Positions 11,260-64,000 of a stretch of DNA of 64,000 nucleotides are shown here, in pieces. Every line of letters starts with the position of its first letter. Position 1 is the stretch's first letter. The translations under genes and the position numbers were made by a program. This stretch comes from Rhizophagus irregularis (Eukaryota): contig NC_089430.1 in NCBI RefSeq assembly GCF_026210795.1, forward strand, positions 744,001 to 808,000, written 5' to 3'. The notes under the pieces were generated by a model. That model did no database searches and was not told the DNA's origin. It worked only from the letters and a program-made list of their open reading frames with translations.

Positions 11260-11720
11260 AGAGATGAAAAGTAGTGATGGGAGAAGAGGAGTGATGGGAG
11301 GTAAAAAGGAGTGATGGGAGACGAAGAGGAGTGATGGGAGACGAAAAGGAGTGATGGGAGACGAAAAGGAGTGATGGGAGACGAAAAGGAGTGATGAGAG
11401 ACGAAAAGGAGTGATGAGAGACGAAAACAAGTGATGGGAGATGATGAGGAGTGATGGGAATGATGGGAGACGAAAAGAAGTGATGGGAGATGAAAAGAAG
11501 TGATGGGAGACGAAAAGAAGTGATGGAAGATGAAGAGGAGCGATGGGTGAAGAAGTGATGGGAGATGAGGAGTGATGGGAGAGGAAAAGGAGTGATGAGA
11601 AACGAAAAGAAGTGATGGGAGACGAAAAGGAGCGATGGGAGACGAAAGAAGTGATGAGAAGATGAAGAGGAGTGATGGGAGACGAAAAGGAGTGATGAGA
11701 GACAAAAAGAAATGATGGGA
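11260..11720. repeat. Purine-rich ~20-bp minisatellite (GAGTGATGGGAGACGAAAAG)n
   Basis: About 20 or more degenerate tandem copies with almost no C on the plus strand. Confidence 0.95.
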
Positions 11721-33645: not shown

Positions 33646-35287
33646 AAGTTCAAAATTTTTTCCAAATAAAAATCTTATTTATAATAAACTTTGTAATGTA
33701 CAAGTAACAGGTAACACAAAAATCTGCATAAATTACTTATATAAGCATTATGTAATAAGGCTTGTTAGTAAAATTTCAATGTCGATCATATCAAAATTTA
33801 CTTGAAAAAATTTTTATCTTTATACAAATTCTTTTTAAATATTTAGGTAATAAATACACAATTTGCATTGAGGACACTCAAAAAATATTAAAATAGGTAA
33901 GGTCTAGCCAAAAAAAAATTACAGTATTAGTGTCAGGCAGCTACTAGAACAGGAAATAAAACTCTGGCCAGCATTATCGAAAATTGTCCAAAAAAGAAAG
34001 ATATACATGATTATTTGGCCTATTTAAATTCAAAATTCAATTATTTTGTTGTCAAAGTGGCTAAAATTGTTAAAAAAAAAAAAAATTTTTTGTTAAGTTC
34101 TTATCAATACGATTATTAGTTTAGAATTCAAAGACTTCATGTACCTCCCAGCCGTTCTCCTTTTTTAATAATAGAAAATGGGTCTCGTATAATCTGATTA
34201 CATTATAATGAAAGTATTACCAATAATGTTTATTATTTTTAATACTATATTATAAATTTGTACATCAATGATTAGAATATTTTGAATATTTTGAATTTTA
34301 TAATTTTATGGTATCAATTCTCGCATGAGAGTATTGGTAACAAGCAGGAGAAAAGATTTGAAATGTAATATTAAAGATGCATAATTCTTTACATCATACT
34401 TGATACTTCTCCAAATCTCCAATAAATGGTTTATTACGATAAGAATAACAATTTTGATTAGGCATTTATTTATGAAATTGTACTTTACGATTTGTTACTC
34501 TTTTAACCCCTTTTATTCATTTTTATGAGAGTTTTTATTGAGATTTTATTTCAAATAGATAATCGTAAATGACTTTTTCATCCTTGTAAACAAACTATCA
34601 TCGAATATGATCCAATGATCATCCGTAAATCATTTAGACATTTACGTTATTCAAGTTGGTACCTCTTTTAATTTAAAATCAAATGTTGAACATGTAAAAA
34701 TGCGAATTATATGTCATTGTATTTTTTTGTAGCCATATGGCGACCTACCGAAAAGAGTTTTATTTAAATGTCAACTTGAAATATAAAGAATGTGATGTTA
34801 ATCTGAGTGGTGTAAATTATATAAGATACACTGTTTCAAAAGAAATTATACAAACTGGTGTAGAAATTAAAAAGTTTCATAATTTGATAAAACTCATCAT
34901 TTATTTTTTCAATTTTATCCATTCAAATACATTATTACTTAATATATATCAAGTATATGAAAGGATGGTTCATTATACTAGTTTATTGGTGAATCCGTGA
35001 ATGTACTGATAAGGTATGAAATTCCTTTTCGATTTATAATGTGATATGTGCGGCTGAAAAAATATGTTGTACAGACTATTCCAATTTTGAATTAGTGATC
35101 TGCTGGATCTACAAATTATATTTTTCATATGCACGAATAGTTACACTTTATTAATTTGTATTCAAGAAAAATAAATTTTAAACTTCCGGTTTACTCTTTC
35201 TTTTTTTTGTCCAAACTTTCATTTCATTTTATATATCAAATATTATTTAAATAACTATTATATAATTTTATATAATATTTATATAAT

Positions 35288-46382: not shown

Positions 46383-47496
46383 TAAAATCGCTATAATTTA
46401 CAAAAGAGTTCAATATACCAACACCGAAAATAATTTATTACTGAAATTCGGGCGAAAATTTTCCAGTTTATTAAAGTAGCATGGTATGATATAACAAAAA
46501 AGTATAACCATTTATTGAAGTTGAGAAACACCTTCTTTCTGTATATTAATTTTATGGATTAATAGTTTTCTTATGCAAATTCAATCTTAATATATAAAAT
46601 AGAAGTTGCGATTTGTGGGGGATTTCGCCCCCTAAGTGATTTTTTGTATGACTAAAATGATTTCTCTTTAATAAATGTAAATATTTTTTTGGATGTAATA
46701 CTGTTTAAAGGTATGTAACTTGGTTTGTAAAAAAAATTATCTTTTCAGTTTTATTAATAAAAAAATAAGAAAACAAAAAATAAGCATATATAAACATGAA
46801 TTTTAAATATAAAATTGCATTTTTTATATTATATTTTATTAATATAATTATAGCTTACAAATAATATTATCTTTTTTGGTTGGCTGTATTTTACTGAACT
46901 ATTTTTTTTTCAAATTTTTCTTTTTTTTTGATTGGTTGTAAATTTTACCAAACCAATTTTTTTTTAATTAATTAAATAAACAATAAAATTTTGTACCAAG
47001 AAATTTCTCAGATTTCTTTTTTTTATTTAAAAGTGAAAGAAAGGCCATCCCAAAAGAAAAGCCATCCTTTAAAAAATAAATCTTGTAGATATATCATACA
47101 TCATTAAATATATTAAAAGTTCTTTTTAATAAATAAATAATAAATGTTAATAATATATTTATTTTTTTGAATAAATAAATAATGTGTAATGTAATAAATA
47201 AAATGAAATATTTTTTTAATAATAATTATTATTGAGATTTTTTTTTTAATAAAATTTTTAATATCATAAACTGGTATGTAAGAAAAATTCACATGAATTT
47301 TTCCTTTTATAAATATAAACTGATATGTAATCATCTTTATTGAAAAATGGTCTTCTCATTGATCAATGAAATTTTTTATTGATCAACGGAAATTAAATTT
47401 TTTTACAAAAACCTTTTTTTTGATGGTACAATTAAAAATGCATTAAAAGTGGCACAAAAGTGAATAATTTGTGATTTTATTCTAATGATGTCAAAA

Positions 47497-48635
47497 GAAG
47501 CAATTTTGCTATATTGCTATAGCTATAATAGCTATAGCAATAGCAATTTTTTTTTTTTTTTTTTTTACTGGTTAACAATAAAAACTTATTAAGAAAAATT
47601 TATGGAAATTACAATCATGCCTTTAGTTTGATTCTAAGTTACAGTTAAAAAAAACTAAACACTAATACTAAACTAAATACCTAAAATAAATCAATAAATT
47701 GAATTATTCCCAATAAACCAGATCAAACGGAAATAATGAAAAATAAAATTAAGGAAACTCACCCTAAAGGGCGAAAAGAAATTAAATTAATTGCCGATCC
47801 ACGAATGAATCGGACCTAGTGATCGGCAAAATCAAATCTCCACTTCCAAAAAAAGTAAAGTCGGTCAATTTTTAGCCAAACCAATTAAATTTTTTTTTAA
47901 AAAAAACTTAGAGATTAAATCTATTTTGTAAAAATATAAATTTAAGTATTTCAAAACTCAAAATTTTGCGAATTGCTTTTAAATATCATCAATTAGCGAA
48001 ATTTTAGTAAAAATTATTTATCATTTTTTTTTCTAATAAAAGTACTAGCAAGAAGTCTCAAAATTCACACATATATACTTTGGACATATATTAATAGAAT
48101 ATTAAAAAAAAAATGATATAATAAATGTAAAAATATTTCCTACTTTAAGGTTAACTAACAATAATCCATTTTCCCATTTTTAATGCTTATATGAAACTTT
48201 TATAAATCAATCTTTAGGAATTTAAAAATGGTAATTTTATCTTAAAATATAAGTTCTGAACATATTTAAAGCATTTATTTTCAAATTATTAAGTGAAAAA
48301 ATTTTTCGGTTTTGTGTCGATGGTTACACAAATTACGAATTGAAGAAATTTAAAGTTTATTGGTGAAAGTTTGACTTTTTTAAGAGCTATTTTTGATACT
48401 TTAATAAAATAAAGCAAATGTCAAAGTTTTTTCATTAAAAATTTCAATCTATTCGATTAAAAATTGTTGGATATTCCTATATTGGAAATGCAGATTTAAG
48501 GGGTGGTCCGATTGGTACATGGATTACTAATTAAACATCTTTATTAATAATAAAAACTGTATTTTTCTTTCGCTATAGCTTTTTTTTTTTCTTTCGCTAT
48601 AGCAATAGCAATGAATTAGCATAGCTATAAACTTC
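47497..48635. repeat. Possible degenerate TIR element bounded by GCTATAGC-rich blocks
   Basis: TTGCTATAGCTATAATAGCTATAGCAATAGC at ~47515 and GCTATAGCAATAGCA..TAGCATAGCTATAAACTTC at ~48595. TIR match is imperfect and no TSD was found. Confidence 0.35.
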
Positions 48636-48739
48636 AACTACGAAATTCTATGGAAAGCCATCCTTGACAAAAGGTTGATATCCAAACATCATAAAATATA
48701 ATGTTTAGACATCATGATGGTATGTCTAGACATCATATT

Positions 48740-49124
48740 TATGGAAAGCCGTCCTTGACAAAAGGTTGATATCCAGACATCATGTTGGATAATGTCTAGA
48801 CATCATGTTTGATATATGTAGAATAATGTTTGTACATCATTCAACATGATGCTCAAGCATCAACCGACATGATGTCTTAGACATCATGTTACCAAATATA
48901 GTAAATTTTATTTTGTGTAACTCATAAATATACTATATTTGGTAATTTGATCAGCATGATGTCTAGACATCATGTCGGTTGATGTCTTTCACATCATGTT
49001 AAATAATGTACAAACATCATCCTACATATATGAAACATGATGTCTAGACATACCATCATGATGTCTAAATATTATATTTCATGATGTTTGGACATCAACT
49101 TTTTGTCAAGGACGGCTTTCCATA
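48740..49124. mobile_element. IS3EU-like MITE inserted into a copy of its own family
   Basis: TIR TATGGAAAGCCGTCCTTGACAAAA / TTTTGTCAAGGACGGCTTTCCATA with 6-bp TSD CATATT (48734-48739 and 49125-49130). Confidence 0.85.
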
Positions 49125-49201
49125 CATATTTGATATATGTAGGATGATGTTTGCACATTATTTAACATGATGTGAAAGACATCAACCGACATGATGTCTA
49201 G

Positions 49202-49650
49202 TATGGCACGCCAGGCTGGACAGATGTTTAACGTAAAAGCTAAATCATTTGACGTTAACACCATATCATTTGACTTTGGAGTACAAAGCATTTGGCGTTA
49301 AATATAAACCATTTGTCATTAATTCCAAAGCATTTGTCATTAATTCCCAAAGCATTTGCCATTAATTCCAAAGTATTTGCAAATCTATAAACAAATTTCC
49401 TATAAAGGAAATAGGATTTCACGAGACTTTTAAAAAGAAAATTATTACTTAAATTGCACCATTTAAATTTCAACCAAATATGGAAAATTATTTTCATATC
49501 GCCAAACTGTTTGACAGTATTGGCAAAGAATTTAACAATAAAGTCAAACAGTTTGTTGGTACAGCAAATCATTTGAATTTCGCAGTTAACCTTAAACGTC
49601 AAATGATTTAGCTTTTACGTTTAAACATCTGTCCAGTCCGGCGTGCCATA
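49202..49650. mobile_element. Second IS3EU-like MITE family
   Basis: ~55-bp TIR TATGGCACGCC..CTGGACAGATGTTTAACGTAAAAGCTAAATCATTTGACG / ...GGCGTGCCATA with 6-bp TSD GTCTAG (49196-49201 and 49651-49656). Confidence 0.85.
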
Positions 49651-49734
49651 GTCTAGACATCATGCTAATCAAATTACCAAATATAGTATATTTTATAAGT
49701 TACACAAAATAAAATTTACTATATTTGGTAACAT

Positions 49735-50311
49735 TAGAGGTGCGCTCCGGATGAATCTGGTCAATCCGTCATCCGGATGATCACGTGACGGATCAATCCG
49801 GATTAAAAAAATCGGATCATCGGATTATCCGCGGATTGACCGGATTGATTATAATTCCGGCCGGAATTAAGTAATCGGCATAGAATTATCCTTTTTAGGG
49901 CACGAGTAACGTTACACAAATCCAAAAAAGGCAATTTTGTTTCCCAGCAAAAATGAAATTTTGGGTTTCACAAGAATCCTAAAAAGGAAATTTTTCGCCG
50001 ATCATTTAATTTCAGCCGGAATTTATGATTAGGTATTTAATTGTTGTCACGTGACGCACGGGCATGTCGATCGTTTCCATTTTTGGCGATACCCGTTCCA
50101 CAAAAAACCAGTTTTTCTAAATTTAGTTTCCGGTCGTGTAACATAAAATTTCCTAAAAAGGAAATTTTTTTGTCGATCCCGTATAGGATAGATCGGATAT
50201 CCGGTCATCCATCCGGTCTATTTGACGGATTCATCTGATCAATCCGAATCCGCCTATTAGACGGATTGATCCTAGGATGACCGGATTGACCAGATTCGGA
50301 GCCTACCTCTA
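49735..50311. mobile_element. hAT-like MITE (TAGAGG...CCTCTA termini) lacking a TSD
   Basis: TIR TAGAGGT..GCTCCG..AATCTGGTCAATCCG / CGGATTGACCAGATTCGGAGCCTACCTCTA with many CCGGAT subterminal repeats. The 8-bp flanks GGTAACAT and TATGGATG do not match. Confidence 0.75.
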
Positions 50312-52774
50312 TATGGATGGCTTGAGATCAGAAAAATTGGGAATGGATTTGTCCACTTTCAAGCCCAATTATATGAAGCATGTCCTATTTGTGAAATCAA
50401 GCACGAAAAGGATCAGTTATATGGCTTTCTTCGAAGTAATGGCTGTTTTGTACTCAAATGCTATTGGCAGAAAAATTATAAACCAGATCATAAAGGATTA
50501 GCATTTGGAAAAGTGATCGAAATTTCTGCAAAACCTAAGCGAGGAATAGTCGAAAGAATAGGTGATGCTATATCAAATCCACGCCCCCTTGTAGAATTAT
50601 CAGAGACAATGATTAATGTAGAAAAATTAAAGGATGCTCCAGAAGTATATCCCGATTTCTTGGGTATTAAGAAAATGACAACACTTATTCGTTCTCCTCC
50701 GGGAACATGGAAAACCACTACATTAAGAGAGATTATTATGGCATTGAAAAATAATGTACATGATCTCTCTTCTTTGCCATGTTATATCTGGGTTTCTTAC
50801 CGAAAGTCTCTTAGTAATGAATCAAAAACGAAACTTGATGAGCTAAAAGCATCTGGTTTTCGAATTTGCAATTATCAAAATATACAAGGAGACTTATCTA
50901 TAAATGAGTGGGATATTATCATAGTACAGGTTGAGAGTCTTTTCCGTATCGAGTTTACAGCCCGTCCATTTGTAGCTATTCTTGATGAAGCTAATGCCAT
51001 TATGCGTCAAATGTCTAGTGGTACAAATGCACGAGAATCTGAGAATGCAATACGTGATGTACTAAGATCTGTGAGACATGTTTTGGCCGTGGATGCTTTT
51101 GCAAATAAATCAACACTAACCTTTCTCCAGACTTATCGTGGTGAAAATATTTGCATAGTTGATAATAAGTATCAGCCTCGTATAGGCGAGACAGTTGAAT
51201 TTATTTATGATCTGAATAGCGGAGCTGAAGCCATGCGAATAGGATATGATCTTTTGAGGCAGGGCAAACGTGTAGCATTCGTATCTACTGGAGCAGTGAT
51301 GGCTAGAGCGCTAGTAGAAAAAGCATCTAAGTTGTTTAAACCTGACAATTCTCCTGTTAAAGCCCGTGCATATTATGGGAATATGGATGGGAAGCAGAGA
51401 CAAAAAGACTTCTCTAATATTGATGTTGCTTGGGGTGAGCTTGACTGTGTAGCTTACACAAATACAGTGGAGGCGGGAATATCATTTGAGGTTACGGGCC
51501 ATTTTGATATAGTTATAGCTATTACAAACATCACCACTCCAGTTCATGTTGAGGCTCTTGCGCAAATGCTTTATCGAATTCGTGACTGTCCTCGTCGTAT
51601 TGTTTCTGTGTTTTATCAAAAAAATTCTAATGAACTTTTTCGTCCACCAGGTCGTGAAAATATCCGAGCAGAACTTGAAAGTGCTCGACCTAATAATTTG
51701 CCTACATCAATAAAGGGTCACCGTGAATGGGATAGCAACGCCATTTCTTATAAAATCGATGAATCTCCTGCTGTAATAACATTTGTCGAAGTTGAGCATC
51801 AGAAACGGCTTTCTGCGAGATATTTTATTGAGAAGCTTTGTAGTCTTATAGCCAGTACTGGTGCTTCTCTCCAACTAATAAAAATGGATGAGAGCCGAGG
51901 AGTTATAGGGAATCGTAAAAAAGTCCGCAATGAGGTTAGGGTTGAAGCACTAGTTATCAAGGAAACAGATTTTGATGCAGTTGCTACTTCCCGGAATCTC
52001 GATCCTGAAGAAGCTGAAAATCTTAAGTTTGACCAAGAACGCTCTATCCCAGATACTATGGCACTTAAACGTTTCTATATGCGAAATATTTATGGTAAAG
52101 ATATAGACAATGAGATTTGGGATAATCTTTGCAATAAAAAGTTTGTAAAACATTTCAGTCCGCCCGAACCTCAGAAACATTTCTTGCAGTTATCTCACTT
52201 TAGAAAGCAAGGCTATGATGAGGAAAGTGCAATGAAAGGGTTAGAGGTCAAAGATATTGCGCAATGGGAAGATAGCCATTATAAAGCTGGTTATAATTCT
52301 GAGAAATCAGTAGCAGAGGACTTGCACAAATCATATTCAGCTAATCATTGGAAAGTTATAAGGGAACTCTTTCAAATACTAGGCTTTACCGGCATAGATG
52401 ATAAGCGTATTTTTTCCAGTAATATAATATCAGAAACATTCACACAATCCTGCGAGAGGTTTATAAAAGTCCTGGATCAATCCCTATTACTCTTCGGATT
52501 TAAGTCTTGTGCTAAGGTAACATCGGATCTTAATTCAGCTATAAGGGCAATTAATGCAATTGCTGGAAATTGGTGTGGCTATACTGTAAAGATAAATAGG
52601 AAAAAAATAGGGCCTAAAGAAAAACAGGTTTGGGAACGTTCATATCAAATTAATCGGCAACCATATGATGGTCTTGGTTTTGGAGATAAAGGTACGCCAG
52701 AGCTTCCACCATATAGGCCGAAAACAGATAATGATATTCAGGAACTCTTTGATTCTATAGGGCAAGACAAATAA
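50312..52774 (+). CDS. 5'-truncated UL9-like (origin-binding protein type) SF2 helicase with an upstream Zn-ribbon
   Basis: The frame is open from 50312 (YGWLEIRKIG..ACPICEIKHEKDQLYG..FVLKCY) into the 753-aa ORF. Divergent Walker A RSPPGTWKT, SYRKSL, QVESL, Walker B ILDE, YTNTVEAGISF and motif VI-like QMLYRIR. No introns. Confidence 0.75.
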   Translation, partial: YGWLEIRKIGNGFVHFQAQLYEACPICEIKHEKDQLYGFLRSNGCFVLKCYWQKNYKPDHKGLAFGKVIEISAKPKRGIVERIGDAISNPRPLVELSETMINVEKLKDAPEVYPDFLGIKKMTTLIRSPPGTWKTTTLREIIMALKNNVHDLSSLPCYIWVSYRKSLSNESKTKLDELKASGFRICNYQNIQGDLSINEWDIIIVQVESLFRIEFTARPFVAILDEANAIMRQMSSGTNARESENAIRDVLRSVRHVLAVDAFANKSTLTFLQTYRGENICIVDNKYQPRIGETVEFIYDLNSGAEAMRIGYDLLRQGKRVAFVSTGAVMARALVEKASKLFKPDNSPVKARAYYGNMDGKQRQKDFSNIDVAWGELDCVAYTNTVEAGISFEVTGHFDIVIAITNITTPVHVEALAQMLYRIRDCPRRIVSVFYQKNSNELFRPPGRENIRAELESARPNNLPTSIKGHREWDSNAISYKIDESPAVITFVEVEHQKRLSARYFIEKLCSLIASTGASLQLIKMDESRGVIGNRKKVRNEVRVEALVIKETDFDAVATSRNLDPEEAENLKFDQERSIPDTMALKRFYMRNIYGKDIDNEIWDNLCNKKFVKHFSPPEPQKHFLQLSHFRKQGYDEESAMKGLEVKDIAQWEDSHYKAGYNSEKSVAEDLHKSYSANHWKVIRELFQILGFTGIDDKRIFSSNIISETFTQSCERFIKVLDQSLLLFGFKSCAKVTSDLNSAIRAINAIAGNWCGYTVKINRKKIGPKEKQVWERSYQINRQPYDGLGFGDKGTPELPPYRPKTDNDIQELFDSIGQDK

Positions 52775-52799
52775 TACTTCAGCTCAGATCGTTATTCAA

Positions 52800-53036
52800 C
52801 TAAGTCTTAACCATATCTGATTCTGTTTTAGTTTTTTTACTTTTGCGCCAGGCATGGTCATAAATTCCACCATGTGTGCTACAGATTCCAGTATCGGAAT
52901 AGGTTCCCATCTTACAGACAGGGCATATTGTTCTAGGATGGGCATTAAAATGTCTGGAACATCCTAATTCGCTCATACACCCTTTCCCACAAATCGAACC
53001 ATCTCTCTTGATATATTGGCAGATAAAACGACCCAT
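52800..53036 (-). CDS. Small Cys/His-rich zinc-finger-like protein (78 aa)
   Basis: MGRFICQYIKRDGSICGKGCMSELGCSRH..ICPVC..TGICSTH, with C-x9-C-x3-C-x5-C-x2-H and C-x2-C-x10-C-x2-H patterns. Confidence 0.6.
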   Translation of the reverse strand: MGRFICQYIKRDGSICGKGCMSELGCSRHFNAHPRTICPVCKMGTYSDTGICSTHGGIYDHAWRKSKKTKTESDMVKT

Positions 53037-53175
53037 ACGAGGTAATTTTGATACTAATAATCTCAAAACTTCATCTTCACTTTTATTATAGATATTTAAA
53101 ATTCCTTTGCTTTAGCGGGTCAGCTTAGTAACCGCGTCTTCGGCCAAAGTTACAAACCCTACTCACTCTTTTTGC

Positions 53176-53627
53176 GACGCTATTAAGGCTGGGAAGTTGC
53201 GTGATCCAGTTTATACTGAAACTGGAAAGCGTAATAATGTGCCATTTGCCAAATTCATAAAGAGTTTAAAAACTAATCAGGACGAAGATGAGATTACCCC
53301 CGAGCTTCTAAGAAAAATAGGAGCTAAACACGCCTCGATGGTTCATACCGGTCCAAATCCAACCCTCAACATCTCGACAATCTTTCAGAAATCGCATTAA
53401 GACATAAAATTAACCGTCTTGATGCAGGAAAAAATTACGCTTTGGGTGATCCAAAATCGAAGAAGGAGCCCAAATCTGAACCAGAGACAGGTGATGGTCC
53501 AAACCCCCAAACACAGGCTTCTTCACCTGCATCTCAGTCTAGAAATAACGATCCAAAAAAGTCTCAGACTATGGATATGGATTCAATGTTAGCAGAAATC
53601 GCAATGTTAGCTGAAATTCGGAAATAG
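53176..53627 (+). pseudogene. C-terminal remnant of a putative tyrosine recombinase / telomere-resolvase-like protein
   Basis: Joining two ORFs across a 1-nt frameshift near 53363 gives ..TPELLRKIGAKHASMVHTGPNPT/QHLDNLSEIALRHKINRLDAGKNYALGD.. The R...LRH-x10-Y spacing resembles the tyrosine-recombinase HxxR / LGH / catalytic Tyr arrangement. N-terminal part absent. Confidence 0.45.
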
Positions 53628-53811
53628 ACGAGCCATACACAGCGCCTTCGGCCAGATTGTGCGATAAATATTCAGTTTATTTTTTTCAGATATATAAAAA
53701 TGTTAAGAAGTGATATAGATGAAATGCCAGGTTGATTAATCAGCCCTCCCTTATTTCTCATATTTGTTCAGAAAAAGAATAGATTAATTGAATCGGACAA
53801 ACTATCTGGTA

Positions 53812-54027
53812 ATGGCTAAAAAATCAAGAAATAACAGGCGCAAGACAATGGGTAAGTTTACTACTAATCCCACACAATATTTGCCCCTATGCAATCCAGC
53901 CAAATATGAGCACACATATGATAGGGCAACCGGCTTTATCACTGTCAAGAATAAAAGACAGGATAGGATTGTAGGCGTGTTCGATTATCCCGAGCTGAGT
54001 GAATATCTGGGAGTTCGATCCAACTAG
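53812..54027 (+). CDS. Small basic hypothetical protein (71 aa)
   Basis: ATG-initiated intronless ORF MAKKSRNNRRKTMGKF.. within the gene-dense island. Confidence 0.45.
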   Translation: MAKKSRNNRRKTMGKFTTNPTQYLPLCNPAKYEHTYDRATGFITVKNKRQDRIVGVFDYPELSEYLGVRSN

Positions 54028-54180
54028 TCCGGAGCAGTGATCACTTCGCTCGAAAGAAGAATTTGCTGGGCCACTCCTGTGCGACAGAAAAATAAGTGGA
54101 TCATCAGTCAGGTCATGTGCAACATAATTTTCGCATATACTGAAAAGAAGCTATGCACGCTAACAGTACTTTATTTTTTA
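54026..54180 (+). repeat. Conserved ~150-bp upstream cassette, copy 1
   Basis: AGTCCGGAGCAGTGATCA..TTTGCTG.GCCAC...TGTGCGACA..AAATAAGTGGATCATCAGTCAGGTC.TGTGC.ACATA..CTAAC.AGTAC; matches 55099-55250. Confidence 0.85.
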
Positions 54181-54211
54181 TTAAGTATAATTGATCTACA
54201 ATATTAGCAAA

Positions 54212-54979
54212 ATGTTTGATGACGCGGATGAGGCCTATAATGAATTTATCAAAGAATATGGGGAAAGGTATGAATGGGGCAATGAAGGAATTCCTAAATT
54301 TACACCAGAGTGGGAAGACTGGGAAGATCTTTTTTGCGAAATCAAAATCTATTGGAAGACAAAGGCAATTAGGCATTGGAGAGAAAAAATACTTAAGAAA
54401 TTTGTATATAGTCTGCCCGGCATAAGAAATCCAGCATCATTATTCCATGTATTCATACAATCCAATGCTTTTTACCTCCCACAAATTTTAAGCCTAATAG
54501 AATTACCGTATAGTGCCGAGGAACTTCGATGGGAAATATGGCCGGATGGTAAAGATACAGATGAGATCAAGGTAGAAAATAATGCAGATGAGGTTGATAA
54601 GTTCCGGTGTGGATCATTGCTTCAAGATGAAGACTCAATAGTGGATTATTACTCGAAGATAAAGAGATGTAACGATGTTATCAAACTCTGTAAAAATCAT
54701 CTTAAAGAAGTATTCATTAAAGGGTTAACGCCAAAAAATAAGCATTTCGCTTTAATGGATTTTGAATATATTTTTCCACCAGATTTACCTCTTGATGTAT
54801 TGGTAATAATGCTTATTCAAGTAGAAAAAGGTACAACGTCTAAACTACTCTTGCAAGCATGCTTAGACTTTATATCACAACAGCAAAGATTTGCTATTTA
54901 TAAGTCCCCAATCGGTACATACAAGATTCTCGACCGGAGGAGGAAAATGGATGATAACCGTAAACCGTCTTACATTTAG
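54212..54979 (+). CDS. Hypothetical protein (~255 aa)
   Basis: Long intronless ORF starting MFDDADEAYNEF.. directly after cassette copy 1; no motif recognised. Confidence 0.65.
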   Translation: MFDDADEAYNEFIKEYGERYEWGNEGIPKFTPEWEDWEDLFCEIKIYWKTKAIRHWREKILKKFVYSLPGIRNPASLFHVFIQSNAFYLPQILSLIELPYSAEELRWEIWPDGKDTDEIKVENNADEVDKFRCGSLLQDEDSIVDYYSKIKRCNDVIKLCKNHLKEVFIKGLTPKNKHFALMDFEYIFPPDLPLDVLVIMLIQVEKGTTSKLLLQACLDFISQQQRFAIYKSPIGTYKILDRRRKMDDNRKPSYI

Positions 54980-55098
54980 GTAAATTTAGGTAATATCAGT
55001 CCTAGTATTGTTAATCGGCTTGGATTTTTTTTCGAGTTTCATCATTTTTCGAAGCATTTTGCGATAATAGTTTTCGTGCCGGATTAACAACACTAATC

Positions 55099-55250
55099 AG
55101 TCCGGAGCAGTGATCATCAGCTCGGAAGATTTTGCTGAGCCACAAATTGTGCGACAAAATAAGTGGATCATCAGTCAGGTCTTGTGCGACATATTAATTT
55201 TTGCATATATATTCGAAAAAGAAAACATACTAACCAGTACCTATATTTTT
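55099..55250 (+). repeat. Conserved ~150-bp upstream cassette, copy 2
   Basis: Diverged direct repeat of 54026-54180. Confidence 0.85.
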
Positions 55251-55708
55251 TTCCCGAACAAATGTGAGAAAATGGCCTGCTTCACAGGCGCTTCGCTTGA
55301 AAGGAGGTCTAGTTGCAACACAGGACCAACTCCAAAAGTAAATACTGACGGCAAAAGCATATGTTATGAAAGGCTGAGGGATACGCAATTTCGAGATCGC
55401 CAGGCGTAAAACCAACTATGTCTTTCCGGTAGATCTACATGTGAAAAGGTATGAGAATTCTATTTGCATGTGCCTTCATAGAACTCTTGGCATCATACGA
55501 CAATGCTAATCACTATTCTTATCTCCTTAACTTCGGCTTGGCGCTCTTTTTCCAGCAAGATATAAAGCATGTAGGAGTATGTGGAAGTTCAGCCAACTTT
55601 CCGCAAAAAAATTTAAGGTGCGTATGTGATAGAAGTTATGTATGGGAGCGAAGTGCGACATAAAAAATACTCACTATAGGCTCTTAAATTTAGGAAATTC
55701 GCTACACA

Positions 55709-56050
55709 ATGACCGATAACAATGATAGGGATGGTATTGATATCACTCTCAATTGTCTTATCGTTCCCATAGGGAACCTCTTCGATCTTCCAAGCAACCA
55801 AGTAGATCAAGCAATTACAATCAACACAGGTCGAACGGTTGGCGGACTTGAAATTGCAATTCGTAACCGGTTAAACCAGTTAGGCCTGTTGGGGGTACAA
55901 TTTTCTAATCTTTCTCTAAGTATTCGTCAGATCCATCCCGGAACAGTTAGCGAAAGACCAATGAACTCTCAAGCCTATATTTCTGTTTTTTTTAATGATC
56001 AATTTCAACCTCGAGCGGGTCACTTCCATGTCACCGTATATTCTCCATAA
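55709..56050 (+). CDS. Stand-alone Crinkler N-terminal (ubiquitin-like) domain-like protein
   Basis: ITLNCLIVP..AITINTGRTVGGLEIAIRNRL..FHVTVYSP parallels ITLFCLV..AFSVKIN..ISELKDAIK..IHVIV of the adjacent CRN. Confidence 0.6.
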   Translation: MTDNNDRDGIDITLNCLIVPIGNLFDLPSNQVDQAITINTGRTVGGLEIAIRNRLNQLGLLGVQFSNLSLSIRQIHPGTVSERPMNSQAYISVFFNDQFQPRAGHFHVTVYSP

Positions 56051-56495
56051 TTTTAGTGTTATGTAGCGCTATAGTCGCAATTTTTATGTATTGTAAGCCG
56101 GCTTCCGGCAACGTTTTTATTTCATAAATAAAGTATTTTTATCGAACGTTATGAGAAACGGGTCACGTCTAATGAAATGGGGTGCGAACCCGATCACTAT
56201 GTAATATCGGACTATAAATCTAACCAATCTAGCCTATATAAAAAAGCGTAGCACTATATCAGGTGATAACTGATAAGTGAGAAGAGTCTTCACAGTTAGG
56301 GAGGCGCAGTGATTAGGCGTTCGTTGCACCATGCAATTGCTGATCATACGGCAGGCTTGTGAAACAGAATAATTTCTCACATATAGTGCTCACTCAGTAT
56401 TTTTTTTCACAAATAAAATTCTTTTTACTCTTGTCCTCATATACCGCACTTTGAGCCAATAACATTTCACAAAAAATACTATATAAGTCGGAAAT

Positions 56496-58210
56496 ATGTC
56501 TATCACTTTATTCTGTCTCGTTAAAGGAAATACAACCGCGAACGCTTTCTCTGTTAAAATAAACAGGGACGAGCCTATTAGTGAACTCAAGGACGCTATT
56601 AAGGCAAAAAAGTCACCAGAGTTCGACAATTTTCCTGCAGACAGGCTCAGGCTATGGAAAAAGGAAATTCCTGACGATCAGGACGATCTCTTAAGCAATC
56701 TCATTCTCAATGACGAACCCGAGCTCCTTGCAACAAGAGAAATTGGAGACTACTGGACTGAGAAACCGCCTAAGAGGCATATCCATGTTATTGTAAAATT
56801 GCCCCGTAAGTGTCTGGAGTGTCTGGTATAGTCTAATTTTTCGTCATTTGCCCTTGTAATATTAACACGCATTCGTTTCCAGTTCTCAGCTTGGAAGAGG
56901 CGTTGTCGTGTATTCCACCACCCATAACATATTCTCCGGACTGCGTTACCTCGAAGACCACTACTAAGGCTGTAGGTGACCCGCCGGCAAGTGTGCAACT
57001 TTGGGGAGACTTTTTCGAGCAAGTGAACAGCTTTCATTTCGACCAACAGCCGATATTCGAGAGGCCGAGATTTAATGATAGATTTGCTGTGGTCGATGAA
57101 GAGGATGTTCGTAATGCCATAAATGTTAATATTTGTATGATATTGAATGATCTTACAGGACCAGACTACGTATATTCAAGGAAATCTACTGACACTCCCG
57201 GCATACCAGATTTCAACTGTCATCTCGTGGGTTCATTGATCTTGGTGATGGAAGCTAAAAGAAAACATGTTTTAGAAGATATGGGGGAACAAACATTTCC
57301 CGAATTTTATCAGACGAGTAAAGGCAAGGATGTAGTTCAACAAATCTATAATTATATGGGAGGAAACGAACTTAGATATGGTATTCTCTCCACCTATGAT
57401 AATCACTGGTTTCTACTCCGAGAGCATACAGAGCTCCGGATCTCAAAAACCCTCCCACTTCAATCTGAAACTCCACCTGTACTCAAGGCATATGCTTATC
57501 TAACTCGACGGGCGAAAGAGAATCCCAAGTCTCCTAAACCTCAAGTACTAGTGCCGGCTCATGGAGACAATAATTCACGTAATCTTCGGTCACATTCGAA
57601 ATCGACTTCCAGCTCCTCAATAGATCAACAATCAACTTCCGGCACTTTTGCAAATCAACAATCGTCTTCTAACATCCCAGTAAACCAGCAAAAGTTTAGC
57701 TTCGCGGACTTCAAGTTTAAGGGCATACTAGGTGAAGGACGAAGTGGTAAAACACTCCTTTGCGAGTTTCGTGGCGATACGATTGCTTTGAAGAGCGTAG
57801 ACTTGTCGAAGGCTCCATCGTATGTTCTGAAAGAAATGCAGAAGGAAGTAGAGATTTACAAGGAACTCGCTGATATCCAAGGCAAGTATATCCCGAAGTT
57901 GGTCTGTTATGGATATTATGGAGGAGGTATGAGCTTCGTTATCGGCATGACTATTGTCGGCACTTCGTTGAGCGACCAAAAAATAAAGAAACAGCAAAAG
58001 ACAAGGGCTATTAAGGGATTAGAAGCGATCCACAAGCATGGCATCCTCCACAATGACATTCGGGAGGAAAACATCTTAATTAACGATGACGGTGGCGTCT
58101 ATCTGATTGACTTCGGTATGGCAAGTCGGGAGGACACAAAAAAGAAGAGAAAGCTTTTCGAGGAGGAACAGCTCAAATACTCTAACTTGCTAGATAGATA
58201 TAATACGTAA
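56496..58210 (+). CDS. Crinkler (CRN) effector-like protein: CRN N-terminal domain, PD-(D/E)xK nuclease-like domain and kinase domain
   Basis: Exon 1 56496-56805 (MSITLFCLVKG..LRLWK..HIHVIV), GT-AG intron 56806-56882, exon 2 in frame. IPDF..LVMEAKR..QQIYNYM..YGILSTY nuclease pattern; kinase motifs GEGRSG, IALK, HNDIREEN, IDFG. Confidence 0.88.
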
Positions 58211-58593
58211 GATTTATTATTTCGCAAATTCCTATTTCTTGCAATCTTGCGAAGCGCCTGCGAAGCGCCTTAATGGCTAACGGCTAATTTCTTATAATTA
58301 ATAATCATGTATTTTACAGACATTTCGTAAAGAAGGAGGGGCGAATTTCCAAGTCACGTAAATGTCAGGTGGTTAGTTAGACTGTAGGGATATACATTAG
58401 ACATTTAGTATAGAAGCGTCATGTATCAGTTGTATCACGGGCTAAGTCCCGATCTTGTATTTATTTTTGCATGTATGTATATTAATAAAAATTTTTCTTG
58501 GCAAATTTCGCTGACCTCGGGTCAGGAAAATCACATGATATTTTTTATTTTGAATGCTTATATACAGTCTATTAGTTTTATATATTATAGATC

Positions 58594-60252
58594 ATGTCAT
58601 CCGAGCTTGAAGTATTGAAACAGCGTATCATAGAACTTGAGGCTGAGAATGCCGAAATACCTGATCTTAGAAGAAAGATCTCAGAGTTCGATGCTGAGAG
58701 AGTTGATCTTAGAAGAAAGCTCTCAGTGTCTGATGCTGAAATAGCTGAACTTAAGCGCAGTAATAACGAGTTTCTAAGAGCGAATAAGGAATATAACGAG
58801 AGGCGTGATGCTGAAAATGCCAAACTCAGGGCCACAATCGAGGAGTTGAAATCTGAGAATATTGAAGTTAGAGATAGACTCACGAAAGTGGAACAGAGGC
58901 AGGTGCTAAATGATAATTCTTCTAATGATAATACCCCTAACATTAACTCATCTAACTTCAATTCGGGTGCGGTCCATCATGAAAAACCGTTAGAGGAGAA
59001 AGAGATGGATAGTTTCTTGCTTGAGGCTCATAAGAAAATCGTTAGTAGTGAAATAAAGCAACGCAATAAGGAAAAGAAACTTAGCAAAGCAGAGCAAGCA
59101 TCTCTTAACCAAGATCAAGAATCTGACACCGGGTGCTCCACTTCTGAAAAGATACTGGAGGTATTCAATCCCGTGACTAAAATTTCAGCCGGGGCCCCCG
59201 GCCAAAATAGCCATAGGAAGAAAGGTGCAGAAAATATCGTACAATTGATAGCTGATGGTATTAAGGATGATGCCCAATCGAGTGATAAAGCCATTCCTTG
59301 CGATGTGATTTCAATTGAGAGTCTCAACCAAAATTCATCTACAGATTCATTGCTTTCTCTAGCACAATTATTCGATAAAGCGGATGATGCTGAATATGGC
59401 GCAATTCGTGCTAATCAGGAAGAGATTTTGCGCTGGTATTATTATGGAAAGGAATTTTTAACTCAGGTTAGTGTGATTGTACAAGATGGAAAAGGCAAAA
59501 TAGGTGAAAAAAAGGCAAAGGGAATAATCTATGATAAAATGTTGGAACACCTATCCATGTTGCGAAAGCAACGATCTGAAGAGACAGGATTGCGCCTCCC
59601 AGAAATCTCCCGTAAAAACTTACAAAGGAAAACTCAGAAAGCTGTAAAGATATATATAATATTTGAAAAGGTAGGCGTAGAGAATATTAAGTATATTACG
59701 ACATATAGTGCGAACTCTATTTCTGAGTTGACTAATGATAAAGTTCAAGATATCATAGATAATTTCTCCGAGCATAATGATAACGATAACGATAACACCG
59801 ATGTGGAAGAAGTACCCATGGGGATTTCAGCCGGGGGCCCCGGCCAAAATTCAGCTGAGGTAAGTGAATTAATCGCACCTATTCCTGTTACACATGGCTC
59901 TAATTCTTTAGGTAATTCATCATTCACGCCACAAATTGCTCCAGCCGAGGCAGAGAATCTTGTCGACTATGATGAGGTATATTATGATGATGATACGTAT
60001 TTTGATGATCCCATGCCTTCGTCAATGGAGAAAGGAATTAATGAAGTTCAGACAGACGATGATAGTAATTGTAGCCACGACAATGATTCCGAAGAAGAGG
60101 TGCCAGATGAATCGGATGATGACGGATATAATAGATATGATGGATACGATGAATGGGGTAATTGTGACAGAGGCTATTATTATCGTGACAGAAGACGTGA
60201 AAGGAAAACCTCTCCAATGATGAGTCCTATTATTTCACCGGTAACTGCCTAG
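58594..60252 (+). CDS. Coiled-coil hypothetical protein with acidic tail (552 aa)
   Basis: Intronless ORF with N-terminal heptad repeats, a central helical block (ANQEEILRWYYYGKEF..LQRKTQKAVKIY..TYSANSISELT) and an Asp-rich C-terminus. Confidence 0.8.
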   Translation: MSSELEVLKQRIIELEAENAEIPDLRRKISEFDAERVDLRRKLSVSDAEIAELKRSNNEFLRANKEYNERRDAENAKLRATIEELKSENIEVRDRLTKVEQRQVLNDNSSNDNTPNINSSNFNSGAVHHEKPLEEKEMDSFLLEAHKKIVSSEIKQRNKEKKLSKAEQASLNQDQESDTGCSTSEKILEVFNPVTKISAGAPGQNSHRKKGAENIVQLIADGIKDDAQSSDKAIPCDVISIESLNQNSSTDSLLSLAQLFDKADDAEYGAIRANQEEILRWYYYGKEFLTQVSVIVQDGKGKIGEKKAKGIIYDKMLEHLSMLRKQRSEETGLRLPEISRKNLQRKTQKAVKIYIIFEKVGVENIKYITTYSANSISELTNDKVQDIIDNFSEHNDNDNDNTDVEEVPMGISAGGPGQNSAEVSELIAPIPVTHGSNSLGNSSFTPQIAPAEAENLVDYDEVYYDDDTYFDDPMPSSMEKGINEVQTDDDSNCSHDNDSEEEVPDESDDDGYNRYDGYDEWGNCDRGYYYRDRRRERKTSPMMSPIISPVTA

Positions 60253-61346
60253 GAGAATTATTGGGCGAATTAATTACTCGCATTGACTGAATTATCGTAT
60301 ATTTCTTTTTTTCCGAATCACGTGGGTGGCTTAGATATCATGTAAACGTCATCCCTATATTCCTCCGCAGTAAGACGTCACCGGCATCCGCAGTCGTAAA
60401 GGCGCTAAGACAGAGGATCTATTAATAACCCCGGCTATAAGAGCAATATTTTTGCGTTACTATACTTATGAACTTTCCCCAATGTTCTGGTATGTTCTAT
60501 CTCACTCATTACGCAGTTCTGAATTACTAATAAAAAAACACATCCCTGATTTACATTTTGCGGATCGTAAGACAGGGCGTCGTTAAAAAGAAATTCAAAA
60601 TGGAAATAGAGTCGATTAGAATCTATGATTTACAGATCCTCGGATAAACGGTAAATTTTTATTATCCTACTGACGTTAGTGCATTCAAATTACGTGTATA
60701 TGCTAATCACATATTAATCCGTTTTTGAATAGGAATTAGTGGTAACATGTGCGGTTCGTCATCTACAGATCTCGAACAAATATTCCGATTTTTTTTGATT
60801 ACAATTGAAATAGGGATAGGTTAATAATACATAACGAACTTCCTATTTGGGAGGGGCTGTGAACTCAAACAAAAATACACCACATGCGATCTTCTGTTTT
60901 GCAAGAGATCTTAGAAGTAAACGGAAAATTTTGAGACACGGTATTGCTCCATTAGTGTTACATTAAGTTGACATAGAACCGTAATTCGTCGGATTTACTT
61001 TTAAGCCGTATTGTTAAATGCGCCTCAAATTCAGGGAGGAACATTTGTTATTATTAGACAGGATCCAGGCCGTTATAATTGCTTTAGCTGAAAAAATATA
61101 ATTATGAAAAATATAGTTATGACAAATACACGTAATTTTTATTAAATCGGGTTAAATTCTCTTTTCACGCGTAGTAAGCATACAGTATAAAATAAACCTT
61201 TCTCCCAGCGCATTTACGCAAGATAACTATTGCTATTAAAAAAATCAAGCGATATTATCTAAAAAACTTGATCCACCAATAAAATCTCAATAAAATTACT
61301 ACGCCTAATCATGTAAAGTTTGTCATTGCTCAACTCTTCGGAAGCC

Positions 61347-62219
61347 ATGTCATTTTTGGCCTTAACCGTCATTTTTTTGTTCATTAGTCCAGCGATATTC
61401 GTAGGAATCGTCACCATGTATGGAAATCTAAAACAAAAGATCTCTAATGAACTTTCCGCACATGTCATCAAAATTCTCATCGATCTTGGTATACTAAATA
61501 ATATACCGGGAAAGAGGTCACTTCATGACCAGATCTCTACTGAACTTAATGATAAATTTGACACATGTATTTCCGATATTAATTCTATTTTCACTGAGAA
61601 GCTCGACAGAATCAATAATGATCTTAATAATAAACTTACCGCGGAAAACAAGGCACGTGATGATGACTTCACTAAGGAGACACAGAAAATCTTTTCAATG
61701 ATCAGTACTGTTACTGAAAGGCTTGATAGGATCGAAGAAGCCTGTCATAATGATTTTGGAAACATTTCGTCCGAATTTACATCAATCAAAGCTTCTATTG
61801 AAATTCTTCAAAATGATTTGGCCCAACGTTATGCGGTTGTCCAAAGAGCCAATTTCGATCAACAAAGCGTGTTCAATGAATCTGAAACTAATGAATCTGA
61901 ATTGGGAAGTTCGCTAAACTCTGCCTCAGCTTCAACTAGTTCAAGCTCTTCATCTGAAGGTTCCAATTTATCTGGAATTTTTGATATTACTGGAGATATT
62001 AGAATCCGCTTTAAACAACACTTTGATCGACTTATGAAGGCGAGGAATTATACTTCTGATGAGATGTTTATCTCGGTAGCGGTAGATATTCGTGGTCTTG
62101 GAGGGAATATTAAAATCTCAACAGTGAAAAATTTTTATAGTGGTGTTGGTCGTAGTACAGTTAGTACTGTTAATCAGATAAACGCATGGGTAGCTAGTTT
62201 TAATAATAATGCGGAGTAG
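61347..62219 (+). CDS. Hypothetical protein: N-terminal hydrophobic helix, coiled coil, Ser-rich linker and possible C-terminal HTH
   Basis: MSFLALTVIFLFISPAIFVGIVTMY hydrophobic stretch; the C-terminus ..KISTVKNFYSGVGRSTVSTVNQINAWV resembles an Xre/Cro-type HTH ending. Confidence 0.7.
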   Translation: MSFLALTVIFLFISPAIFVGIVTMYGNLKQKISNELSAHVIKILIDLGILNNIPGKRSLHDQISTELNDKFDTCISDINSIFTEKLDRINNDLNNKLTAENKARDDDFTKETQKIFSMISTVTERLDRIEEACHNDFGNISSEFTSIKASIEILQNDLAQRYAVVQRANFDQQSVFNESETNESELGSSLNSASASTSSSSSSEGSNLSGIFDITGDIRIRFKQHFDRLMKARNYTSDEMFISVAVDIRGLGGNIKISTVKNFYSGVGRSTVSTVNQINAWVASFNNNAE

Positions 62220-63118
62220 CGGGGAAGGAACTGCCAATATATGGGTTAGGGCCTGGCAGGCATTTATGCTTTATTTCTCCCTTGAAACAACCTGCTACTC
62301 TATTGTTTTTTTATTTTCATTTTTTACTTAGCCGGCCGGCCCTTTCTCATGTATTACTTTGCAATAAAGAATGTTTTGAATGATTTTTAAAATCTTGCAG
62401 TTAGTTATATTGGTAGAAACAAATTAGTTATAGATACTTTTCGTAAATGTAAGAGAGCAAAGAAATAACTTGATGCTGGGACTCGCACTAAATGGCCTAT
62501 GATCCGCGTACTCCCTCCCTCTTTGATAGCATCATACATTTCGCTTACTACCTCCACTTTTTTATAAAGGAATCGAAAAATAAATCATTGTTTATGTAGT
62601 TCTTTCATATGTAAATATGTATATCTTTGAACTCCGAAATATAACATCAGTAAAATCAAATGATGCATAAAAAAAGTATACAAAATCAATTAATCAAATG
62701 ATGTCATCCTCATAAGATATATAATAATTAGTATTCAAAAAAAATGTTTCTTAAACTTCTTTCTTAAAATTTTAATCAATGTCTTCTTCTTTCATTGATA
62801 AAGAAAGTTTTACCGATATCATATCTATCCTTCTCGTGATTTTTATCGCGTTCGTGGTCTGTGTGATTATTAAGATATCTGAATTTACTATTTGGATTAT
62901 TACTTATCTAAGGCTTTCTTTTTGTCGCTTTTAGTTCTTTCCTATTACTTTCGTTCTTCTTTTGATCGCTATTACGTCATACATTGGATATAATATTAGT
63001 AAGGGGATTACTTATATCTTCAACAGAAGTAAGTCATTGGCTTGTTCACTTGTGTAACGTAAAGTCGTTAAAAACGGATTTCTCGTATTAAAAAATTTCA
63101 TACTCTATTCCAATAACC

Positions 63119-64000
63119 ATGGCGAACATGTCTAAAGTTTACTGCGAGAAAATAGATCTCAAAAATCTAGACCTTAAGAAGGTTTATACCTTCGAAGAGT
63201 TCGAGTACATAAACGACCAACTTAAGACTCGCACTATACAACTTAACGGAAAACCAGTTAACCTCTTCGAATACAAAAACGGAAAGTTAATCCCAATGCC
63301 TCAGACTCCATACGCAAGAGAAAAGGTTGTTGCCGAGATTGTAGGACAGTTGCGCAACTGGAACATCGAAACCCATCAAAATGGAGGCGTTACCTCTTCG
63401 CAAGGTGGCTTTGATTTTAATGTCGGGGGACAGAGAACAATTCGAGCACCCGACGTTTCTTTCACTCCAAAACAAACAGACCGCGGTTTGAACGCACTAC
63501 AAAATTGGACCTTCCAAGGTCAACCCTTCACCCCAATATTTGTTGTTGAGGTTGATTTTATTGAAAGTGAAGCACAATTCCAAGTATTTGACGATAGATT
63601 CAGAAATGAAATTTTTGCACAGGGAACATCTGTGGAGTTAGGATTTCTAGTTGACATCGGCCAAGATAATAACGGCCAACTGGTGGGAACTATCCATTCG
63701 TGGAAATGGTACGAAAATAGTAATGCTGTACGTCATTATGAACATGGATGGCGAAATATGGATACCAGGGTTAGCGGTCAGCAGATTCTTCCAGGATTCA
63801 TCTTGGATGTTGAGATGATTGAAGAGGCTATCTCACAAGTATGTTGTGACGATTTATCATTGATGATTTTATTTTAGATCTTATCATTTATTTATTTCAT
63901 CAAATGATTACAGCAAGATTCAGGTTCATATGATGATGTTACTAATATTCCTTGTAACGGACCTGGATGTACAGCAACTTTTACTAGTCACCACGCTTTC
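63119..64000 (+). CDS. Uma2 (DUF820) family restriction-endonuclease-like protein, 3'-incomplete
   Basis: FEYKNGKLIPMP..VAEIVGQLRNWN..GGVTSSQGGFDF..IRAPDVSF..PIFVVEV..LPGFILDV. Probable intron from ~63839 (CAA|GTATGT) to ~63913, with the next exon running off the window. Confidence 0.8.

Follow-up and report, generated by a model that had tools for sequence, protein, structure and literature searches.

A GC-rich block of genes at the end of the window

We analysed a 64,000-nucleotide stretch of the Rhizophagus irregularis genome (NCBI RefSeq assembly GCF_026210795.1, contig NC_089430.1, positions 744,001 to 808,000 of the forward strand; here called the window), the right-hand end of which holds part of a candidate mobile element. 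The first 48 kb of the window consists of intron-rich kinase genes and repeats at 25% guanine plus cytosine (GC), and mean GC rises from 0.251 over 1-49,000 to 0.379 over 50,312-64,000; a single change point fits best at 49,736. The element exceeds six host open reading frames (ORFs; 0.24-0.30) in GC both where it is coding (0.393) and where it is non-coding (0.350), and the shift is therefore not a coding artefact. An earlier annotation made from the letters only (the sequence-only reading) had placed this sharp rise at 50,312 and described the ORFs behind it as co-oriented; the rise is real but starts with an inverted-repeat unit at 49,735-50,311 (GC 0.41), and the small Zn-finger ORF, which it had rightly listed, lies on the minus strand. 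The junction and the core genes are as follows.

49,735-50,311, no strand: inverted-repeat unit of 577 bp, non-coding and resembling a miniature inverted-repeat transposable element (MITE), with imperfect terminal inverted repeats of ~40 bp
50,312-52,774, plus strand: 5'-truncated, intronless gene for an AEP primase-Zn ribbon-UL9-type SF2 helicase (PF02399, E 1.7e-17)
52,800-53,036, minus strand: small Cys/His-rich (Zn-finger-like) ORF of 78 aa, convergent with the helicase gene; no library match
53,176-53,624, plus strand: remnant of a predicted protelomerase-like (tyrosine-recombinase-fold) gene, C-terminal third, in two frames

The 577-bp unit, whose inverted repeat (49,735-49,774 / 50,275-50,311) is 83% identical, truncates both of its neighbours, to the right the primase-helicase gene and to the left a further inverted-repeat unit. 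We rejected it as the left terminus of the element, since it cuts the primase gene mid-frame, relatives read through this point, and it has no target-site duplication, the flanking 8 bp differing on each side. Related soil-metagenome contigs (1.0-3.9 kb each) span 50,311 at five of 17 loci, and all five match the window from exactly that point, with primase sequence upstream. The interval 49,735-50,311 is a rearrangement junction, or scar, and not an element terminus; because the unit interrupts a gene, the true left end of the element lies outside view. The right end does so too, as a contig at 4.1x host depth extends 547 bases beyond 64,000. The unit starts with TAGAGG, which we take to resemble hAT ends. 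To its left, 48,649-49,734 is occupied by nested inverted-repeat (MITE-like) units, the outer one truncated at the 49,735 junction. No Rfam family was found in 47,000-64,000.

A primase-helicase related to viral, plasmid and phage initiators

The intronless frame at 50,312-52,774 encodes the Zn ribbon and UL9-type SF2 helicase that had been read there, but it belongs to a primase-helicase gene of which only the 3' three quarters are left. Its product is 94.5-97.7% identical to four R. irregularis proteins of 1,082-1,103 aa, and full-length relatives align with it from residue 266-284 onward; it corresponds to their residues 284-1103, so that the primase domain is absent from the window copy. 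Among 94 homologs, all 85 with an organism name come from Glomeromycota, the best being R. irregularis proteins at 90-98% identity; this search scored only the 7,996 candidates sharing most words, and distant relatives cannot appear in it. In a 28-row alignment of the replicase family, counting rows with a residue at each position, conservation extends over the primase motifs (DxD 14/18 and 17/18, SxH 17/17 and 15/17, third Asp 17/19), the Zn ligands, and motifs I and II of the helicase.

Searched against PDB sequences, the family profile matches UL9 (E 4e-14) and, weakly, the primase domain of poxvirus D5 (E 0.037), with no cellular SF2 protein among the six matches at E up to 1. It covers positions 2-594 of the 595 of the CyRepA1 model (NF042913) at E 9.6e-38, scoring 130 bits against a curated cut-off of 200, and matches PHROG 4913 (E 2.6e-21). 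Among 50,697 phage records the only matches are two records of RepA from VP882 (E 8e-5), whose gene sits ~1 kb from a protelomerase, and a comparison of the replicase and VP882 RepA profiles gave a probability of 95% (E 1.9e-8). The nearest ESM Atlas neighbours are Mucoromycota clusters, followed by Nucleocytoviricota, Preplasmiviricota and phage clusters. By these comparisons the replicase groups with herpes UL9, plasmid CyRepA1 and the RepA of the hairpin-ended phage-plasmid VP882, to which it is related, and not with cellular SF2 families. The SF2 primase-helicases of N15 and PY54 are described as experimentally confirmed replicative helicases with a DnaG-type primase (PMC4889955).

The second enzyme of the core has a predicted protelomerase fold

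What had been noted as an R..H..Y remnant behind the Zn-finger ORF does belong to a gene of tyrosine-recombinase fold; it keeps the xLR, LRH and Tyr motifs but has lost the first catalytic Arg and the Lys, and is frameshifted. It is 54-59% identical to residues 291-437 of the full-length protein P0137, and comes closest to the C-terminal part of gene model P0523, in which the Arg motif is kept. The resolvase-like family to which these proteins belong has members of ~380-440 aa, gave 181 matches in one search and 385 representatives in another, and receives no name from Pfam, PHROGs, NCBIfam or PDB sequences. A quick tree of 33 rows divides it into two main subtypes. P0137, of the subtype of the window remnant, and P0257 are full-length homologs (31% identity, E 7e-46), and each subtype has the same helicase and Zn-finger genes in front of it (L013, L016).

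What is chiefly new here is that this enzyme is predicted to have a protelomerase fold. A second structural model, made for P0257 on a more diverse alignment, reached a predicted local distance difference test score (pLDDT) of 81.9. In Foldseek its ranks 1-6 are TelA (E 2.3e-3, TMq 0.35-0.39), ahead of Cre (E 1.8e-2, TMq 0.29), and its best match among viral structures is the telomere resolvase of EhV86. A search independent of Foldseek returned Z >= 8 for four of 48,161 chains, all of them telomere resolvases: TelA at 13.3 (root-mean-square deviation (rmsd) 7.6, 260 residues aligned), a second TelA at 13.3, TelK at 12.1 (rmsd 9.2, 245 aligned) and ResT at 8.9 (rmsd 4.3, 142 aligned). The best integrase reached 7.4, variola topoisomerase 6.4 and Cre 5.9. 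We rejected a topoisomerase IB identity on these values (Z <= 6.4, against 13.3 for TelA). ESM Atlas neighbours agree in direction, PF16684 accounting for 19/30 (score 0.95) and phage integrase for 1/30 (0.93).

The catalytic residues can be followed through a 77-row alignment, where, counting rows with a residue, the columns hold Arg in 66/71, Lys in 65/65, Arg in 55/64, His in 34/59 and Tyr in 49/52. A further column, corresponding to a position that is His in tyrosine recombinases (PMC3558466), is Lys in 31, Ser in 12 and Arg in 10 of 64 rows; TelK and the VP882 protelomerase likewise have Lys there. We read the family as protelomerase-like in predicted fold.

Two gene models, P0521 and P0292, run a resolvase-like member together with D5-like helicase text, which suggests that the replicase partner may be exchangeable. 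Several resolvase-like members carry the database misnomer 'highly derived d5-like helicase-primase'. Two unnamed ENA proteins, P0333 and P0350, are divergent members that form their own branch and differ in amino-acid make-up, a branch suggestive of hosts other than Glomeromycota; a search for viral contigs gave none for either. IMG/VR gave no relative to the helicase, three resolvase-like proteins, two alignments or one DNA motif, in pattern-based scans that can miss distant relatives, and a prokaryote genome scan gave nothing and plasmids no resolvase match, in pattern- or BLAST-based searches that miss distant relatives as well.

Copies, gene order and decay across the family

The genes of the window belong to a set that recurs together. 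Depth was normalised to the neighbouring host contig in two runs, leaving X6 and X9 aside, and element contigs lie at 3.0-7.3x that level in X1 (6 pieces) and at 3.2-7.0x in X2 (7 pieces), contig depth being a rough guide and not a copy number. The raised depth is alike in core and cargo, and the contigs are exact or near-exact matches to the window. Three near-full-length helicases, 94.5-96.8% identical, lie on three contigs of a single annotation. The Zn-finger ORF occupies the same place after the helicase in five loci (L010, L012, L013, L015 and L016), followed in L013 and L016 by the resolvase-like gene.

Mis-joined gene models preserve the same order in single records: helicase, resolvase, F-box/LRR and a homolog of ORF 54,212 in P0019 (R. 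diaphanus); primase-helicase and then resolvase with the Arg motif in P0523 (R. irregularis); helicase, the start of the resolvase and a kinase in P0078 (G. cerebriforme); and helicase followed by a homolog of ORF 58,594 in P0083 (R. clarus). Helicase and resolvase have consecutive accessions in R. clarus and in three records of R. irregularis, which may represent one locus in three assemblies; in all of these, adjacency is read from the numbering. Related soil contigs with the same gene order are 85-97% identical. In L013 the stretch behind the resolvase-like gene (2659-3891) holds, in place of the cargo of the window, a coiled-coil ORF and an F-box/LRR gene; RING-domain fusions are present in other gene models.

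The ratio of nonsynonymous to synonymous substitution rates (dN/dS) between the window helicase and 17 other copies is 0.11-0.58, with a median of 0.18, and stops or frameshifts are present in 14 of the 17, some of which may be assembly errors. Low dN/dS together with disabled copies is the pattern expected of a selected replicating lineage whose inserted copies decay. The raised depth, the near-identical copies on several Rhizophagus contigs, the conserved order, and the dN/dS of ~0.18 with frequent stops together indicate a multi-copy mobile element family of Glomeromycota. The family carries an AEP primase-Zn-UL9-type helicase with conserved motifs, then the Zn-finger ORF, the resolvase-like gene and variable cargo.

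Single-copy genes, homologs that fail to occur together elsewhere, or a helicase of cellular SF2 type would have been at odds with the sequence-only reading; the genes are multi-copy and stand together at other loci, the helicase goes with UL9, RepA and CyRepA1, and its proposal of an undescribed mobile family of arbuscular mycorrhizal (AM) fungi with a virus- or plasmid-type replicase is supported. Its term self-replicating cannot apply to the window copy, which is a dead, truncated and decayed chromosomal copy: the primase is cut off by the inverted-repeat unit and the resolvase is deleted and frameshifted. Its terms 'giant' and 'spreads effectors' go beyond what was seen, with no terminus or empty site in view; yet the cargo shares the raised depth and recurs beside the helicase in other species.

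Cargo and other features of the visible part

Downstream of the core, the element carries the following features.

54,026-54,139, plus strand: intergenic module of ~110 bp, with a second copy at 55,099-55,209
54,212-54,979, plus strand: ORF of 255 aa with no assigned function, recurrent near the primase-helicase
55,709-56,050, plus strand: ORF of 113 aa with no assigned function, in a 29-sequence cluster; no library match
56,496-58,210, plus strand: cargo gene with Crinkler (CRN) N-terminal domain, middle domain and protein kinase; predicted intron 56,806-56,882
58,594-60,252, plus strand: coiled-coil and acidic ORF of 552 aa; no significant library match
61,347-62,219, plus strand: ORF of 290 aa with hydrophobic N-terminus and coiled coil; sub-threshold coiled-coil matches only
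63,119-64,000, running off the window, plus strand: cargo gene of the Uma2 nuclease family (PF05685, E 3.1e-11); predicted intron 63,839-63,913

The two cargo genes are as first described. The Crinkler-kinase gene matches PF20147 (E 9.3e-28) and PF00069 (E 6.1e-16), and its predicted intron and that of the Uma2 gene are GT-AG, in-frame and read from the sequence alone. The motif of its middle domain, PD..ExK, is presumably nuclease-like. The G. cerebriforme model P0078 fuses a homolog of the kinase to helicase and resolvase text; the C-terminal half of the 552-aa ORF is fused to helicase text in the R. clarus model P0083, and P0093 likewise matches the ORF (63% identity). A helix-turn-helix claimed for the coiled-coil ORFs has no library support. 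The 255-aa ORF has 63 homologs, all of those with an organism name from Glomeromycota, and one of them forms the end of the fused model P0019; two pairs of locus tags, OCT59_024943/024946 and OCT59_026232/026229, each join a helicase to a homolog of this ORF three tags apart, on equally long contigs.

The two copies of the ~110-bp module are 82% identical over 118 columns, and the bin holding the second has a summed depth of 2,600-3,200 in all four runs. The module could be a promoter or a cassette-exchange site. Contigs join further copies of it to other element positions.

As the sequence-only reading had stated, no capsid, packaging ATPase, PolB, HUH or DDE match is found among the 13 frames compared with Pfam, and a PHROG scan of 10 proteins gave no significant match other than the replicase.

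The host DNA has peculiarities of its own. On the minus strand, ~25 tandem near-copies of a ~130-aa kinase-associated exon unit (22,263-33,678) are followed by a kinase domain at 21,351-22,187, an array unusually long for one host gene or gene cluster. A purine-rich low-complexity repeat at 11,039-11,857 has a GC skew of 0.72 and is open in three minus-strand frames, and perfect palindromes of 26-31 bp lie at 47,512-47,542 and 2,462-2,487.

A hairpin-ended replicon weighed against its alternatives

We favour the reading that the family is, or once was, a capsidless, N15-like linear replicon with hairpin ends that has repeatedly integrated into chromosomes, and we give it an even chance of being right, because a primase-SF2 helicase initiator and a protelomerase together form the replication kit of N15-type hairpin-ended replicons. 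In such a cycle the primase-helicase would bind and open the element origin and prime synthesis for a host polymerase. Replication would then yield a head-to-head dimer, whose palindromic junctions the protelomerase-like enzyme would cut and reseal as hairpin ends. Entry into chromosomes might occur through a side reaction of that enzyme (telomere fusion or Cre-like recombination) or through host repair, and be followed by decay, while the CRN-kinase, Uma2 and F-box/LRR genes would be captured host-type cargo amplified with the element.

A number of observations weigh against this reading. No telRL-like palindrome scoring >= 11 occurs in 49,735-64,000, where both element ends are out of view, and no terminus, empty site or free form was seen for an element that extends past the window. 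The identity of the resolvase comes from predicted structure and embeddings only. None of 77 resolvase-like members has a significant Pfam match, PF16684 included (for weak families, among the best 25 of 36), and the family has neither a PDB sequence match nor a profile match to the VP882 protelomerase (probability 0.1%). The model of the subtype found in the window is poor (pLDDT 56.7, catalytic half failed), with Cre as its top Foldseek match at E 0.12 and no Z >= 8 in the wide structure search. Even the P0257 model has no Foldseek match at E 1e-3 or better, its rmsd values are high, and a Z below ~13 may reflect an arrangement common in helical proteins; in the alignment, the catalytic His column is Gln in 22/59 rows. 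The replicase match to VP882 is not specific, as higher scores, each on its own measure, go to herpes UL9 and CyRepA1, and its Atlas neighbours include Nucleocytoviricota and Preplasmiviricota clusters. Depth, as said, is a rough measure. An integrase would explain the many copies dispersed over chromosomes no less well, and TelA becomes a Cre-like recombinase through two substitutions (PMC13221069).

These last points lead to the main alternative, which we hold rather unlikely and in which the protelomerase-fold enzyme has turned integrase or excisionase and serves a large transposon that is excised as a circle, amplified by the primase-helicase and re-integrated, like a Starship or Crypton with an unrelated recombinase. 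It would account for dispersed copies with host-type cargo and for a window with no telomere-type palindrome and no second integrase; ResT and TelA are both capable of Cre-like recombination (PMC13221069), and Cre does come first for the poor model of the window's subtype. The confident P0257 model, however, has its telomere resolvase scores well above all integrases, Lys, Ser or Arg mostly takes the place of the His in the recombinase HxxR motif, and the replicase beside the enzyme is of a kind that occurs together with protelomerases in N15-like phage-plasmids (PMC4889955). The sequence-only reading had called the element recombinase-integrating; a recombinase-fold gene is there, but it is not of the Starship or Crypton type, and with its predicted protelomerase fold integration is only one of two mechanisms, hairpin formation being the other.

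We consider it unlikely that the block is a fragment of an endogenous DNA virus, a nucleocytovirus or polinton-like virus that has lost its structural genes, or has them outside the window, and whose fragments were later duplicated. The nearest non-fungal Atlas clusters of the replicase (Nucleocytoviricota, Preplasmiviricota) and the EhV86 telomere resolvase, the best viral fold match, point that way, as do phaeovirus endogenous viral elements (EVEs) that encode a telomere resolvase and integrate (PMC13236599), a Rhizophagus giant-virus region of similar GC, 36.6% (PMC10640383), and the fusion of the resolvase family to D5-like helicase text in P0521 and P0292, R. irregularis D5 homologs having been suggested as markers of polinton-like elements (PMC11296320). 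The visible 13.7 kb, however, shows no virion, ATPase or PolB gene, the major capsid gene went undetected in five R. irregularis genomes (PMC10640383), the pattern-based IMG/VR scans, which can miss distant relatives, returned none, and the compact conserved order and intron-bearing fungal-type cargo do not suit a viral fragment. Least fitting, and in our view very improbable, is an ancient domesticated viral gene, inherited vertically within a repeat-rich block spread by segmental duplication, with unrelated repeats for neighbours. The origin-binding genes have been read as an ancestral transfer inherited vertically (PMC10234402), the left edge here is a MITE-type rearrangement junction, and some intergenic modules are far deeper than the genes. 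Against it, GC is raised uniformly, non-coding DNA included, the same order recurs in several species and in soil contigs 85-97% identical, and the copies show purifying selection among themselves with 14 of 17 disabled.

Significance

R. irregularis origin-binding genes had been noted as potentially viral and vertically inherited (PMC10234402), about two thirds of the transposable elements of this species are unclassified (PMC11075540), and where its expanded and orphan gene families come from is reported to be unknown (bioRxiv 2021.03.30.436303). We found no published description of the element, and no paper joining Glomeromycota with protelomerase or mycorrhiza with telomere resolvase, in a search mostly outside subscription journals. 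Tying the origin-binding genes to an unnamed resolvase-like family and recurring cargo makes the family a candidate new class of eukaryotic mobile DNA, and a candidate vehicle by which effector genes could be amplified and transferred in fungi that had long passed for clonal. The element lies outside the eukaryotic element classes that could be tested and yet would work like N15-type replicons. If the hairpin mechanism is true, fungi use, without a capsid, a replication strategy known from bacteria, phages and algal giant viruses. An autonomous replicon could also seed a genetic tool for AM fungi.

A bolder proposal, which we think somewhat doubtful, is that capsidless linear plasmids with hairpin ends, based on a protelomerase and the first of their kind in eukaryotes, live in AM fungi. 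These would have a conserved resolvase and an exchangeable replicase (UL9- or D5-type), still be free in some isolates, integrate by means of the resolvase, and carry Crinkler, kinase, Uma2 and F-box genes from one nucleus, strain or species to another.

Comparison with known systems

Starships (DUF3435) and Cryptons or Glomhoppers (DUF3504) share with the element the condition of fungal mobile DNA with a tyrosine-recombinase-fold enzyme; Starships also carry cargo, and Glomhoppers come from the same phylum as the element (PMC13465315). None of 77 resolvase-like members, however, matches DUF3435 or DUF3504 significantly. The DUF3435 captain is the first gene of a Starship, whereas the recombinase-fold gene of the element lies downstream of the replicase, and in contrast to Cryptons and Glomhoppers the element has a linked replicase. 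Starships are not reported in the AM fungal lineage, and the main text of the Glomhopper paper never mentions primase, helicase or protelomerase (PMC13465315). A Helitron HUH Rep-Pif1 SF1 helicase was not found.

Among viruses, the polinton-like viruses have a comparable replicase-recombinase end module (PMC11296320, PMC7805220), but the helicase of the element is SF2 and UL9-type, and its recombinase fold is predicted to be resolvase-like, not integrase-like. For Polintons and polinton-like viruses alike, no capsid or packaging ATPase was found among the frames profile-scanned in the window, beyond which the element extends, and no PolB or RVE in the window, the helicase being SF2 and not an SF3 primase-helicase. 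The phaeovirus EVEs of Ectocarpus and EhV86 resemble the element as integrated eukaryotic DNA with a telomere resolvase (PMC13236599), in the element a predicted one, yet they are viruses of ~350-400 kb that also have capsid and PolB genes and an integrase of their own, and nothing of this kind was seen in the window; more generally, the nucleocytovirus hallmarks (PolB, major capsid protein, A32, VLTF3, RNA polymerase) had no match in the visible 13.7 kb.

Of single proteins, the cyanobacterial plasmid initiator CyRepA1 is covered over nearly its full model, below the cut-off and with one plasmid match, and the fungal protein differs in its extra N-terminal AEP and Zn ribbon. TelA, TelK and ResT (PF16684) share the predicted helical bundle, long linker helix and catalytic domain, and the Arg-Lys-Arg-His-Tyr set; the His-to-Tyr spacing is 11-12 in the family and 11 in TelA (PMC3558466). 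The likeness comes from predicted fold, however, at 11-13% identity, with no Pfam match and no target palindrome found in the visible part.

The N15-like phage-plasmids (N15, PY54, phiKO2, VP882) bear on the element as a whole. They differ in having a DnaG-type primase in N15 and PY54 (PMC4889955), where that of the element is AEP-type, whereas the element has a fungal host, many chromosomal copies, intron-bearing cargo and no virion genes seen, and its resolvase has no sequence-level match. Tailed-phage virion and lysis genes were not found by PHROG in the 10 proteins, and the context is a fungal and not a bacterial chromosome. The window copy lacks the first Arg and the Lys of the catalytic set, and the primase. 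The family as a whole, however, has the protelomerase fold (predicted, P0257), the Arg-Lys-Arg-His-Tyr set and the primase-SF2 helicase, and what it shares with these phage-plasmids is a fused primase-SF2 helicase, related to RepA of VP882, beside a gene of predicted protelomerase fold.

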